From assembly GCA_046482545.1 (NCBI GenBank), contig JAWOEX010000035.1, forward strand, positions 173,629 through 237,628: a stretch of 64,000 nucleotides of DNA, in the 5' to 3' direction. Shown in pieces: positions 60,140 to 64,000 of this stretch. Below the pieces are notes generated by a model that was not told the DNA's origin, searched no databases, and saw only the letters and a list, made by a program, of their open reading frames with translations. The translations under genes were made by a program, and so were the position numbers. The DNA is from Candidatus Thorarchaeota archaeon. Its GTDB lineage: Archaea > Asgardarchaeota > Thorarchaeia > Thorarchaeales > Thorarchaeaceae. Numbering within the stretch: position 1 is the first letter of the stretch; each line of letters starts with the position of its first letter.

Positions 60140-62137
60140 CTATTCAATAATATGCCCTTCTCCTGGCGGAAGAACTCTCATTATCTCCTGTTCTGGTGTT
60201 CTGCTTACGATTCTTGCTTGACCTTCTGGTAGCATTTCTTCGAAGCGATGAAGAATGGATTTTACTAGATCACTCTTCTTGCGTCTACCAGGGCCTACTT
60301 TAATATTGTACTTCGTATGAGCCTCTACTGCTGTGTAGGGACCTGACATGGGCACAGCATGTTCTCCTTCAAAGAGCAATCCTACGGCCAATTCGATGCC
60401 GATATTTTCTATATAGTTCTTTGAACCGTATATCATTACTGCACCTGATGGAAGATACTCTCCAGAGGGAGGGGTGAAACTCACTTGACTTGGCTCCACC
60501 CAATAGGCATCCGCACTCACAAGGTTTTCCTGCCAAGCTTTTGAGAATGTGATTGAGAATTTCCCAGCTTCTTTGAGGGTCATTTCTCCTGGTTGTTCAT
60601 CTGGGACCTTTACGATGACGTAGGGAGCACCATGCACTGCAGCGTGTATGAAGATGTCATTTGGGCCTAAGTGTTTCTTAGCCAGTTCTTCATTTGTTTT
60701 GGCATCTCTTCCGCCTAAGACTAGATGACCTTCAGATGATTTGAACCAGCGGTATTTTTCATACCACTGTTTGCGTCTGATTTTTACTGGCTTCTTCTCT
60801 TCAACAGGTTCAATCTGGTTCTCATCAAGGCTTTGGAGCCCTTTTTTGGTCTTTTCTATTTGCTCTCTTGCACCTTTCATCTTCCCTTCAATCTTTTTCG
60901 CCTTATTGTACAATTTTGAGGCATTCTGTTGGATGCTTTTTTGCATATCTAACTTGGCTCTTTTGTTGTCTATTTCTATGATGATCTCCCCTTTTGCAGG
61001 TCGTATCTCAGTAATCATCTTAGCTGATGGAATGTCACTCTTCTTTCCCTCCTCTATTCGTTCCTGAATTTTGTTCCAAGGAACACCATCAGACCTTGCT
61101 TGCTCAATAGTATGCAGTATTTCTGCTATTTCCTGAAAATTCGCGTACATTGCCTCACCAGTTTCTCGCAGTAGAATGGCTTCGTCTGCTAGCTCATCCA
61201 GGTTCTCTTCCTGTTTCTCGATAATAGTTTGCAGTCTTTCTCTCTCTTCTTTCAGAGCTTCCTCTTTCTTGTCTATCTCTTTCTCTATCTCGGGGAATCC
61301 AAAGAATTCGTCAATGGCCTGACTATACGATTCAAATATCTCCTGTGGCATGTCAACATACATCTGAAATCTGAATGGGACGAAAGAAATGTATTCACCG
61401 TCTTTGTCGAGAATTATCCTTGGTTCATTTGCCCCCTCTTCTATTTTTTTGAGGTATTTCCTGAACCCACGAAGCAAGTCCGAGATTTGCTTGTTTGTCA
61501 TGTTCTCAACTGATTCGGTTGGGGAAATTCCTGCTAAGGCACATACTTCTTCACAACTCAAGGAATCTACATTGAATCCACGTGTCAATGTTCGTATCAG
61601 ACTGGCATTGGAATTTTGTATCACACCTTCCAGATTTTCTAGCTCCACCGCCAGTATATCCCGCCCCCTCTGCGGGGGAAACTGGTAAACTGCATTGGGA
61701 ATGACATTACGATCTCTCATCTTCTTGTAATGGAGAGCAATGAATATCTCGTCATCAGGGTCCACGAGTATAACATTACCTTTGCCAAACAGCTCAACAA
61801 TAAGCTTGTAGCTGTTTTCTTCTCCTCCCACTTCGAAAATCACTATTCTGTCCAAATCATATTGTTCGATGTTTGTAATTACGCGATTCCTGAGGTATTT
61901 TCGAAGCACCATGCAAAATTCGGGAGGAAACCGGGGAGCATCTCTGCGATACCTTGTAAGATGTAGTCTACAGCCCGGTTCAATGAGAATCTGTCGGGTT
62001 CCTACGGATGATTTGTGCACTTTCAGAACAAAGGTGCCATTATACTGATAGACATTGTTTATGAAGGCACCATGGGCCACTTCTCTTATCTCGGGAAGGA
62101 TTGCCCGAATGTCTGTGTTACTCATCGACTCCTTCAT
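60140..62137 (-). CDS. rqcH: Ribosome quality control protein RqcH/NEMF (NFACT)
   Basis: MSNTDI, DRIV, ELFGKGN, WYEKYRWF, GGRDA..NE, GEYL..G. Confidence 0.92.
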   Translation of the reverse strand: MKESMSNTDIRAILPEIREVAHGAFINNVYQYNGTFVLKVHKSSVGTRQILIEPGCRLHLTRYRRDAPRFPPEFCMVLRKYLRNRVITNIEQYDLDRIVIFEVGGEENSYKLIVELFGKGNVILVDPDDEIFIALHYKKMRDRNVIPNAVYQFPPQRGRDILAVELENLEGVIQNSNASLIRTLTRGFNVDSLSCEEVCALAGISPTESVENMTNKQISDLLRGFRKYLKKIEEGANEPRIILDKDGEYISFVPFRFQMYVDMPQEIFESYSQAIDEFFGFPEIEKEIDKKEEALKEERERLQTIIEKQEENLDELADEAILLRETGEAMYANFQEIAEILHTIEQARSDGVPWNKIQERIEEGKKSDIPSAKMITEIRPAKGEIIIEIDNKRAKLDMQKSIQQNASKLYNKAKKIEGKMKGAREQIEKTKKGLQSLDENQIEPVEEKKPVKIRRKQWYEKYRWFKSSEGHLVLGGRDAKTNEELAKKHLGPNDIFIHAAVHGAPYVIVKVPDEQPGEMTLKEAGKFSITFSKAWQENLVSADAYWVEPSQVSFTPPSGEYLPSGAVMIYGSKNYIENIGIELAVGLLFEGEHAVPMSGPYTAVEAHTKYNIKVGPGRRKKSDLVKSILHRFEEMLPEGQARIVSRTPEQEIMRVLPPGEGHIIE

Positions 62138-62209
62138 TATATATAGTCATCAGACCGAGGCTTTTATAACACAGTCGATTACCGATTCACATCAGACAGG
62201 TGATTCCAA

Positions 62210-62572
62210 ATGGACCCCCTTAGCTCAGTCTTTCACGTTCTCTTTGGCAGATGGAAGGACGACCCAAAAGACTTGAATTATTACATCAAAATCTTCTTTG
62301 CCTGTATTAGTGCGGTAGTCTGCGGTATTGCTGGACCTGCTTTTGCAGGAACGAGAGGGATTGTTTTCGGCCTACTGATTTACATCATCAGCCTATATGT
62401 ACTGGTCTACATCATGGACATGGATCCAGAAGCACTTGGCAGTTACCAGAAACTGGTGACAGATTCCCTGCCCAGTTACCTATTATTATGGGTACTTCTG
62501 TGGACTCTCATCTATGCCTTCACATTGCCATCGTCAGTAGTTGAAAATTTGGCTTTCGCTCTTAGTATGTGA
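62210..62572 (+). CDS. EMC6/OPTI (Rab5ip)-like 3-TM membrane protein
   Basis: YYIKIFFACISAVVCG...MDPEALGSYQKLVTDSLPSYLLLWVLLWTLIY. Confidence 0.65.
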   Translation: MDPLSSVFHVLFGRWKDDPKDLNYYIKIFFACISAVVCGIAGPAFAGTRGIVFGLLIYIISLYVLVYIMDMDPEALGSYQKLVTDSLPSYLLLWVLLWTLIYAFTLPSSVVENLAFALSM

Positions 62573-62772
62573 CAGACGCTCACTACTAAGTTGCTCGTCT
62601 CTCTTTTTCGTATATCGAGTTTCCAATAGCTATGGTTTTCACATCACACACCTCACAGATACTGAATTTCTCAATTTCCTCACATAATATTACGAACCGG
62701 ACAATTCTTAATAGACTCCCAAGTAAGGGAATTATCGACTCAGTAGTATATCGCTTAGATGGTGTCTAGGAC

Positions 62773-63678
62773 ATGGAAGACATGGATGAACTAGACGGGA
62801 GACTGCTTCATCTCCTTCAGGAAGACGCAAGAAAACCCTTCACGCAGATTGCAGAAGAGCTAGATACTCCTGATACAACGATACATTTCAGGATTGACAC
62901 ACCAGAACCACCTGATGACGACCTCCCAGAGGCTGTCCTCGGTATCGACCTCGGCATCGAGAAAGCTGCCTGCACAACACTGGTGACCGCCAGGAGGGTC
63001 AGCAAGACCAAGTACTTCGTGCAGGAAGACAAAATCCAGCGTATCAAGGAGCTCGATGGTCTTGTGGCGCAGCTCCAGCACGAGATGCATACTCGGAAAA
63101 ACAACGGCAGCCCTCATGATGACCTAGCGGCTCGACTACGAGGACTGAAGGGCAAGCGTTATCGGGTATCAAAAGAGTATGACCGGTTCATGGTCAGTCA
63201 AATGCTCGATTACATCACCGAGCTGTCTGAGCGATACACCCTCTACGTGGCTATCGGGCGGCTCAAGAACATCAGGTACACTGCTCGACGCGGCAACTAC
63301 AAGGGCCGCAGGTTCAGGGGGATGATCCACTCCTGGGCGTTCGCACGCATCACCGAGAGCCTCAAGCACAACCTTGAGCAGCTCGGCTGGCCGGTCCAAG
63401 GCAAAGGCGCACGCTTTCAGGCAGTACCTGAGAGCTGGACCTCGATCATGTGCTGGAAGTGTGGCAACAAGGGTGTCAGGCCCAAGCAATCGCTGTTTGT
63501 CTGTCATAGCTGTGGCTTTCGCACCAATGCCGATAGGAACGGTTCGTTGAACATCGCACGTCGTTTGATTAAGCTCACTCCTTATCTAAGGGATGAGACA
63601 GGACTAGGGCGGTGGGCCACTCCCCCCACGGGAGAAGCGCCCAGCCCCGAAGGCTGTGAGGAAGACCCCGTCTTCTAA
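62773..63678 (+). CDS. Lrp/AsnC HTH fused in frame to the C-terminal half of an IS200/IS605/IS607-type TnpB
   Basis: aa 1-41 MDELDGRLLHLLQEDARKPFTQIAEEL..TIHFRI; then LGIDLG, CWKCG..CHSCG, NADRNGSLNIA. Confidence 0.8.
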   Translation: MEDMDELDGRLLHLLQEDARKPFTQIAEELDTPDTTIHFRIDTPEPPDDDLPEAVLGIDLGIEKAACTTLVTARRVSKTKYFVQEDKIQRIKELDGLVAQLQHEMHTRKNNGSPHDDLAARLRGLKGKRYRVSKEYDRFMVSQMLDYITELSERYTLYVAIGRLKNIRYTARRGNYKGRRFRGMIHSWAFARITESLKHNLEQLGWPVQGKGARFQAVPESWTSIMCWKCGNKGVRPKQSLFVCHSCGFRTNADRNGSLNIARRLIKLTPYLRDETGLGRWATPPTGEAPSPEGCEEDPVF

Positions 63679-64000
63679 GCAGAAGTCCTCACTCTCCAAA
63701 CAAGGGCCCCATCAGGCCCTGGAGAGTCCGCGGCTGTTCACCATGTCCAGACGGACCTCCTCAGCTACGGTGACAAGGCTGAGGTGGGTGATCATGACCA
63801 CGCCGTGGCAAGAACTGTGGAAGACCTCGCTGTCGCCGGGAGTGATGACCCGGAATGACGACAGGAGACAGAAGCCTGGACCGCGGGAGGAATCCTATTC
63901 CGGTGAACGTGGACAAAGCCCCTGCTAACTCAAGGGCCTATGGGTACCTTGGGAGCGGCGACGCTGGCTGGGGAAGGGTGGAACACAGAAGTTTCCTCAG
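62890..64000 (+). mobile_element. tnpB: Truncated tnpB element with candidate omega-RNA/right end
   Basis: Shift to GC-rich codons after ~62890; RuvC/Zn motifs; GC-rich tail to the window end. Confidence 0.7.

Follow-up and report, generated by a model that had tools for sequence, protein, structure and literature searches.

Organization of the chimeric locus

The window, i.e. the whole stretch of DNA that was analysed, is the final 64 kb of contig C28 in the Candidatus Thorarchaeota genome G000 (3.05 Mb, 45 contigs, 98.9% complete). Near its end lies an open reading frame (ORF) of 301 amino acids (aa) as assembled (62773-63678, + strand), which joins the 5' part of an lrp/asnC regulator gene to the 3' part of a tnpB gene (Table 1). 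Amino acids 4-42 match the HTH_AsnC-type domain (Pfam PF13404, E 7.5e-12), aa 204-261 match the Cas12f1-like TNB domain (PF07282, E 2.9e-12), and aa 39-264 correspond to profile positions 181-389 of 389 in the NCBIfam guided_TnpB model (NF040570), in agreement with the initial annotation, which had read the ORF as an in-frame Lrp/AsnC-HTH::TnpB chimera. From aa 41 onward the product shares ~93% identity with the intact 544-aa TnpBs found in G000 and in a same-genus genome; these paralogs have 223 extra codons upstream of the part shared with the chimera, and the absence of the REC/WED lobe from the TnpB half is thereby borne out. Five further long tnpB copies, found in G000 by tblastn, have ~240 additional open residues ahead of the matching part. 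Homologs are nearly all labelled Candidatus Thorarchaeota/Promethearchaeia, in line with a Thorarchaeia Asgard host.

At the seam the lrp sequence extends to the last base of a TCAGGA hexamer and tnpB begins at the next base, with a step in GC content from ~41% (lrp side) to 55-60% (tnpB side). The two genes are indeed fused at the junction TIHFRI/DTPEP proposed earlier, with the seam one codon before the point given there; codon 41 (Ile) is a hybrid of both.

Table 1. Features of the lrp::tnpB locus (window coordinates unless stated otherwise)
Feature	Position	Strand	Basis
emc6-like membrane protein gene, synteny anchor upstream of lrp	62210..62572	+	Pfam EMC6, E 5.8e-07
Putative TATA-like box CTTAATAG of the native lrp promoter	62707..62714	+	same spacing before intact lrp in G001 and G002
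GGTG, Shine-Dalgarno (SD)-like motif 8 nt ahead of ATG; orthologs read GGGG	62761..62764	+	sequence, upstream alignment
5' fragment of host lrp/asnC, codons 1-40: helices A and B plus half of recognition helix C	62773..62893	+	orthologs, PF13404
TCAGGA, left copy of the target-site duplication and microhomology seam	62888..62893	+	second copy at C23:67-72, junction alignment
3' part of tnpB: linker, RuvC, bridge helix, TNB zinc finger	62894..63678	+	paralog identity, GC step, NF040570
RuvC-I Asp59 (GIDLG), intact	62947..62949	+	motif census, alignment
Gly162 at the canonical RuvC-II Glu position (VAIGRL)	63256..63258	+	G in 102/103 homologs scored
Alternative catalytic Glu220 (VPESWTS), intact	63430..63432	+	E in 116/116 homologs scored
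C4 zinc finger CWKC...CHSC, aa 227-247	63451..63513	+	motif census, PF07282
RuvC-III Asp254 (NADRNG), intact	63532..63534	+	D in 115/116 homologs
Structured putative omega-RNA/right-end region; element ends 35 nt beyond the window (C23:66)	63600..64000	+	fold, copy identity
Tail in which same-strain assemblies disagree: 12 differences, including the ORF-ending +1 C	63622..63809	+	assembly comparison
Right-end segment matching the tnpB leader	L039 about 2250-2300; window-equivalent 63998-64012		

The host lrp gene and its neighbourhood

An lrp ortholog of 158-165 aa lies directly 3' of emc6 in 14 of the 24 same-family loci examined, none of the 24 having tnpB there, and the same-genus genomes G001 and G002 have an intact 163-aa lrp, 77.5-80% identical to aa 1-40 of the chimera. 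Across the family the ortholog was found in 38 of 85 other genomes and, judging from this distribution, is dispensable or patchy; with the ortholog as query, no full lrp copy was found in the 98.9% complete G000. The TATA-like box is conserved before the intact orthologs and the SD-like motif stands at the same place, so these signals belong to lrp. The HTH had been credited with a ribosome-binding site (GGTG) and a TATA-like box of its own: both are present, inherited from the host gene. A sigma-70 promoter scan was set aside, as that model is not applicable to archaea.

After lrp, the gene order in G001 and G002 is KaiC-like ATPase (PF06745), peptidase A24 and fumarate hydratase; in G000 a kaiC-like remnant and the peptidase A24 and fumarate hydratase genes open contig C23. 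Contig C23 overlaps the end of C28 by 31 nt, within the repeat, and contig C34 ends on the same 31-mer. On its own this overlap would be ambiguous; the C28-C23 join is fixed by synteny, by the resumed lrp frame described below and by the same right side in a second assembly.

The emc6-lrp spacer of G002 (C43, L037) contains an independent ~570-nt miniature element (MITE) of this element family, flanked by a TCTTGA duplication; this neighbourhood has thus been struck twice by the family. In a further genome (G062:C60:842-1312) the open frame that holds the lrp ortholog is 407 aa long, close to the combined length of Lrp (163) and its KaiC-like neighbour (236), and is possibly a natural full lrp-kaiC fusion.

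Insertion into lrp and the parent element family

Straight after the right end of the element, C23 reads TCAGGA again (C23:67-72), followed by the lrp codons RTKKLLKREIITRFSAL. With the 1142-nt remnant and one TCAGGA taken out, the lrp frame reads through without a break as TIHFR-TKKLLKREIITRFSAL, matching G001 and G002. The flank consensus at 50 motif-found right ends in G000 is TCNNGA; identical hexamers, mostly TCNNGA, flank 17 MITE-size copies (540-590 nt) and two full-length copies (8.2-8.3 kb) on both sides, and exact 6-bp duplications were found on the copy in lrp and on at least 19 others. The family has imperfect inverted ends, the left one marked by TAAC-N4-TCTTACA plus repeats; the copy in lrp keeps the right end and both duplications and is without the left end. 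Retrotransposition, considered for its fixed 3' end, variable 5' end and duplication, was dropped because most copies have a defined left end and no reverse transcriptase was found.

The full elements lie at C28:133391-141690 (L039) and C20:228523-236760 (L040), with duplications of 6 bp or longer. Besides tnpB, full copies contain a divergent gene of 1410-1655 aa and a short ORF; none of the three has a transposase match in Pfam, and the pairing of tnpB with the giant gene recurs in other Thorarchaeia. The giant ORF has no Pfam match, and searches of Atlas and the PDB gave weak PD-(D/E)xK leads or nothing. Its N-terminus aligned with Cas1 at an hhalign probability of ~5% (E 0.008; reversed control 0.4%, E 0.16), over a stretch that covers the NxLLNY and D-x-x-x-x-R motifs. 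In this weakly Cas1-like N-terminus E114, H204, D211/D214 and R217 are invariant, and a PD-(D/E)xK-like stretch follows.

Searches of G000 for a mobilising enzyme found no resolvase, tyrosine integrase, reverse transcriptase or Pfam Cas1; one partial/short Y1 match lies outside the elements, and the two full copies are without Y1 or serine-recombinase TnpA. The Cas1 genes found in relatives are CRISPR-type, none of them linked to the element. Separately, no PF00589 tyrosine recombinase, not even XerA, was found in G000, possibly a search or assembly miss; all 14 of 14 control genomes have one.

The right-end region has a fold z of -2.78, is 89-98% identical to the other copies (~50 copies in the genome) and has no Rfam match. 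Its structure and its conservation among copies agree with the earlier claim that the omega-RNA locus is kept downstream, the letters themselves differing between assemblies. Just past the window, on C23, and in relatives (L047, L051) a hypervariable segment is followed by GTTCACTCA, and the same hypervariable stretch and GTTCACTCA are known downstream of tnpB in the aCas1-TnpB groups (PMC10691335). Such features make it likely, though not proven, that the family is the Asgard aCas1-TnpB transposon. In the full copy on C28, 13 of 14 nt agree between the right-end segment composed of the hypervariable stretch plus GTTCACTC and the tnpB leader read on its opposite strand; this may be a self-targeting guide, a possible trigger of left-side deletions, or a tracr-like pairing.

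The 3' end of contig C34 (L044:10400-12318) carries an intact 545-aa tnpB with its leader and without a giant partner; no left-end motif was found within 20 kb upstream. This tnpB adjoins a pair of genes (280 and 313 aa) that look, by appearance only, like AbiEi/AbiEii.

Loss of the left end and a second deletion

Where the chimera reads TTC AGG ATT GAC, the aligned paralogs read GTC AGA GTT GAC or GTC AGA ATC GAC, i.e. the left duplication TCAGGA is in register with an internal tnpB hexamer (TCAGAG or TCAGAA in the paralogs) at the end of WED. Missing are the left end of the element and 223 tnpB codons (REC/WED); for a full-length parent the loss would amount to as much as 7.16 kb. The alignment with intact tnpB, proposed earlier as a check for microhomology, thus found a shared hexamer-like TCAG at the seam, and the deletion scar, one of the two options of the initial annotation, can be reconstructed exactly as an insertion that duplicated TCAGGA, after which the left end and the 5' part of tnpB were lost at microhomology. 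The nearest tnpB paralog is at dS ~0.47 and the parent copy is absent from the assembly, so we infer the exact length of the microhomology (4 to 6 nt) and the date.

Other truncated copies were seen in G000. At C2:33141 (- strand) a 310-nt left-endless remnant interrupts a host ORF (...QKEVY / LEVHQ...); TCTGGA stands on both sides, its left copy joined in register to an internal TCCGGA, with no coding gain. The copy at C41:17193 has a plain internal microhomology deletion. A decayed copy at C28:71175-72275 consists of a left end, a 3' fragment of the giant gene and then a frameshifted 3' half of tnpB, broken at nearly the same tnpB position as in the lrp::tnpB chimera.

A second deletion joins lrp codon ~56 in frame to codon 157 of the kaiC-like gene via AGTGCTCTT, a 9-nt microhomology read Ser-Ala-Leu in both genes; it took away the RAM domain of Lrp and two thirds of the adjacent kaiC-like gene. 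There is thus a second in-frame chimera at C23:67-353 (L043:67-353), composed of lrp codons 40-56 and the C-terminal 77 codons of the KaiC-like ATPase. Prior to the insertion, or with the element taken out, it would read as a 131-aa wHTH::KaiC-tail ORF. The chimera is present in both assemblies; a search for an uninterrupted lrp::kaiC allele found none.

Among the 54 TCAG sites of a full element, 16 would yield a fused ORF of >100 aa, so such an in-frame product is not improbable. Microhomology-mediated end joining has been demonstrated in Haloferax (PMC12281630); the present locus resembles it in the short shared sequence at both deletion joints and in the disrupted host gene, and we infer the same process in Thorarchaeia from these junctions.

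Reality of the junction

Logan contigs of sequencing runs X1 and X2 (7.1 and 8.0 kb, depth 12 and 16) pass through the junction, spanning 61800-63199 with 0 differences, no branch and even depth. Assembly GCA_051748335.1 encodes the same chimeric gene (P0271) and differs from the window by 1 SNP over ~10.85 kb of unique sequence, up to 63621; by this measure it is near-clonal, the same strain or population, and offers no independent conservation. It is without the +1 C at 63622, and its frame continues into a normal TnpB tail (348 aa, open to the contig end). As many as 12 of the 13 differences between the assemblies fall in the tail, a region common to the ~50 copies. The point at which the ORF ends in the window, after 301 aa, is thus probably an artefact of patchwork repeat assembly, and the true product would be ~360 aa long.

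Run X3 matches parts of the locus exactly, with coverage that excludes the junction. Runs X1 and X2 may be the source samples of the assemblies and therefore show the reality of the fusion, not its spread.

Residues and predicted properties of the hybrid

Gly162, found at the RuvC-II position throughout nearly all homologs scored, is a clade-wide rearrangement, and by alignment the RuvC triad is of the rearranged type (D59, E220, D254) and intact; rearranged RuvC clades have been described (PMC10691335). The HTH matches positions 1-39 of 42 in PF13404 and 1-39 of 48 in HTH_24, both of which are matched fully by the G001 ortholog. Compared with PF0864, the recognition helix is cut after the conserved Arg40, and TKKLQEKG is replaced by IDTPEPP. 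The wing and the RAM domain are absent from the chimera; the RAM domain is gone from the locus and was not found elsewhere in G000 with the lrp ortholog as query.

The smallest DNA-binding unit of Lrp is the dimer formed through the RAM domain, with helix C reading the major groove (PMC2995911). In TnpB the residues that contact the TAM and start unwinding lie in WED and REC, REC forms the heteroduplex channel with RuvC, and in ISDra2 TnpB several omega-RNA contacts are made by RuvC (PMC10097598). Both halves of the hybrid have thus lost what targeting needs, i.e. WED/REC for TnpB, and half of the recognition helix plus dimerisation for Lrp.

Two structure models were discarded. A single-sequence model of the chimera had a pLDDT of 45 and was useless; a second model (no third helix, aa 34-81 disordered) is no evidence, as its TnpB rows were misaligned over aa 1-80. 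Foldseek matches to this unreliable model were limited to Cas12f/Fanzor/TnpB.

Distribution, selection and expression

In two large searches no Lrp-type HTH was found among 268 TnpB homologs, and the 90% cluster of the chimera holds the copy of the second assembly, intact TnpBs and nothing else. The initial annotation had called for a search for the same fusion in other genomes: it was found only in one near-clonal strain with two near-identical assemblies, the other lineages searched were without it, and both same-genus species keep an intact lrp. A search with aa 1-62 of the chimera gave no match at E 1e-3 and was uninformative. A degenerate junction pattern run against metagenomes gave four compost matches, rejected as unrelated chance matches.

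The dN/dS check, likewise suggested at the outset, gave 0.07-0.17 for the chimera against its paralogs, but this value is inherited from the history of tnpB and is powerless on selection since the fusion. Private changes on the chimera branch number 18 synonymous and 7 nonsynonymous, in proportions similar to those of intact paralogs (32/11 and 30/9). The start-less, promoterless kaiC remnant has 20 synonymous and 6 nonsynonymous private changes and no stops; since it is as undecayed as the chimera, all the pieces are young, and the open frame reflects youth, not selection. Seven changes over ~500 non-synonymous sites put the neutral time since the event at an estimated ≤ ~0.014 per site, and for so young an event selection tests are powerless either way. 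An amino-acid excess in the G000 HTH (9 synonymous, 11 nonsynonymous) was rejected as a signal: its ratio is matched by the discarded lrp remnant, synonymous sites are close to saturated, and family members typically carry these residues.

No competing branch with intact lrp was found in the X1 and X2 contigs, and the chimera allele looks fixed in these populations; youth and clonality, more probably than selection, explain both the intact frame and the apparent fixation. An RNA run from a salt lake (X4, another study) gave 0-difference contigs over 62662-62905 and 62959-63199 at a depth of ~5, with carry-over DNA uncontrolled. It was rejected as expression evidence, as the first contig passes the seam by 12 nt (<31 needed) and starts upstream of the TATA-like box.

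Origin of the chimera

With considerable confidence we read the locus as a recent, unselected insertion-plus-deletion scar, leaving aside the enzyme route of the truncation. A TnpB transposon entered lrp at a preferred TCNNGA site, the TCAGGA at codons 39-41, and duplicated the hexamer; the stretch from the left duplication to the look-alike hexamer inside tnpB was then lost, and what stayed behind is a left-endless, immobile remnant. Repair of a break through microhomology is the most likely route of this loss. Because lrp (F-R) and tnpB (V-R) read the shared letters in one codon phase, the join is in frame. The AGTGCTCTT deletion that fused lrp to the kaiC-like gene is a further step, for which no order in time is implied. 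The lrp promoter may make mRNA for a ~360-aa hybrid, which should be unable to bind DNA like Lrp, because it would be monomeric with half a recognition helix, and unable to work as an RNA-guided nuclease, because it would lack TAM recognition and R-loop formation; the locus would be at most a passive source of omega-RNA. The restored lrp frame, the TCAGGA duplications and the independent occurrence of the same truncation at C2:33141 argue for the scar, while the intact state of the reading frame, the catalytic triad of RuvC, the zinc finger, the promoter and the omega-RNA region argues against it; a deletion that ends exactly at the duplication also fits a truncation made by the transposase.

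Such an enzymatic truncation strikes us as unlikely. The integrase of the element, probably the giant Cas1-like protein, would have taken the internal tnpB hexamer as a cryptic left end and inserted a pre-truncated piece, or an aborted homing-type gene conversion, templated by a full copy, would have annealed at the hexamer; the hybrid would still be functionless. Here and at C2:33141 the left boundary is exactly the duplicated hexamer with zero host bases lost, and the internal hexamer resembles the TCNNGA target consensus. However, no TAAC-N4-TCTTACA motif follows the junction, plain microhomology deletions occur elsewhere (C41:17193), the lrp::kaiC deletion needs no transposase, and the left duplication is already a ready microhomology.

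Nascent domestication, the other option of the initial annotation, has very little to recommend it. Under the lrp promoter a selected hybrid would either be a RuvC nuclease/nickase tethered by its HTH or a dominant-negative that binds omega-RNA and so damps the many related elements. Known domesticated TnpB derivatives have retained REC/WED but not RuvC catalysis, and are conserved from genome to genome; the chimera shows the opposite pattern, in a single near-clonal strain, with an architecture absent among the 268 homologs and a selection signal no greater than that of the equally intact, dead kaiC remnant. That the fusion is in frame, with catalytic residues, zinc finger, native promoter/RBS and omega-RNA region kept, that the allele is unbranched in two read sets and that RuvC provides several omega-RNA contacts in ISDra2 TnpB (PMC10097598) would suit a functional protein, but the recognition helix runs into DTPEPP after Arg40, the wing and RAM domain are gone from a regulator type that needs the RAM dimer (PMC2995911), and so are WED and REC, required for TAM binding and unwinding (PMC10097598). 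It is just as improbable that the hybrid, made from the lrp promoter and with its intact RuvC-TNB lobe folded on co-transcribed omega-RNA, was fixed as a host aid, be it a guide-blind dominant-negative soaking up the omega-RNAs of the ~50-copy family or a protein-tethered nuclease, as a first-step domestication by a route opposite to that of TldR and dCas12f. Misassembly, an assembler jump from lrp to the tnpB repeat that the initial annotation had named among its refuting conditions, can be practically dismissed: the locus does lie 1.1 kb from the contig end within a repeat family, and the final 200 nt do differ between the two assemblies, but unbranched 7-8 kb contigs of two runs cross the junction with 0 differences, the second assembly bridges it identically, and lrp resumes past the right end behind the duplicated hexamer, which an assembler would not invent.

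Relation to known systems

IS200/IS605 and IS607 elements make no target duplication on insertion and use Y1 or serine recombinases. The element in lrp resembles those encoding TnpB of the ISDra2 type in its RuvC domain, its TNB zinc finger and a putative right-end omega-RNA region that overlaps the 3' end of tnpB, and differs from them by its 6-bp duplication, its imperfect inverted ends and the lack of a resolvase. With the Asgard aCas1-TnpB elements (Cas1H-Asgard-1/-2, Altae-Tran et al. 2023, PMC10691335) it shares the Asgard host, the repeat-flanked locus, the NADxN RuvC-III and Gly-for-Glu RuvC-II motifs and, in full copies of its family, a tnpB accompanied by a divergent gene of 1400-1800 aa with a weak N-terminal alignment to Cas1 motifs; in contrast, the copy in lrp is a left-endless 1142-nt remnant without the partner gene, and the Cas1 likeness of that partner is weakly supported.

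Codons 1-40, the promoter and the synteny of the chimera derive from a bona fide member of the Lrp/AsnC (feast-famine) regulators, such as PF0864 (PDB 2ia0), LrpA (1i1g) and FL11, and the product differs from these in having no second half of helix C, no wing/hinge and no RAM domain. TldR repressors, dCas12f-sigmaE activators (PMC13622181, PMC12259090) and Cas12k likewise place immobile TnpB sequence in a host regulatory context; they stay RNA-guided, whereas the chimera keeps RuvC, is without the guide-reading lobe and occurs in one strain.

The chimera as found matters little beyond being a cleanly reconstructable case of TnpB elements wrecking or shuffling Asgard host genes. In-frame host::TnpB chimeras can arise by chance if the microhomology is in codon phase, which calls for caution in the mining of domain fusions. 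Should the hybrid prove to be both expressed and under selection, it would give a rare view of a gene being born from the nuclease lobe of a TnpB. More interesting than the chimera is the parent family, to which earlier work already points (PMC10691335); its footprint, i.e. 6-bp TCNNGA duplication, imperfect inverted ends and left-end loss at the duplication, is now fixed and fits a Cas1-like integrase rather than IS605 peel-and-paste. A different protein of the same clade, P0135 (852 aa), is a full-length TnpB with ~270 extra N-terminal residues that, by eye, have the look of repeated AbrB/MraZ-type swapped hairpins, and from this appearance it is a better candidate for a real fusion to a DNA-binding domain.
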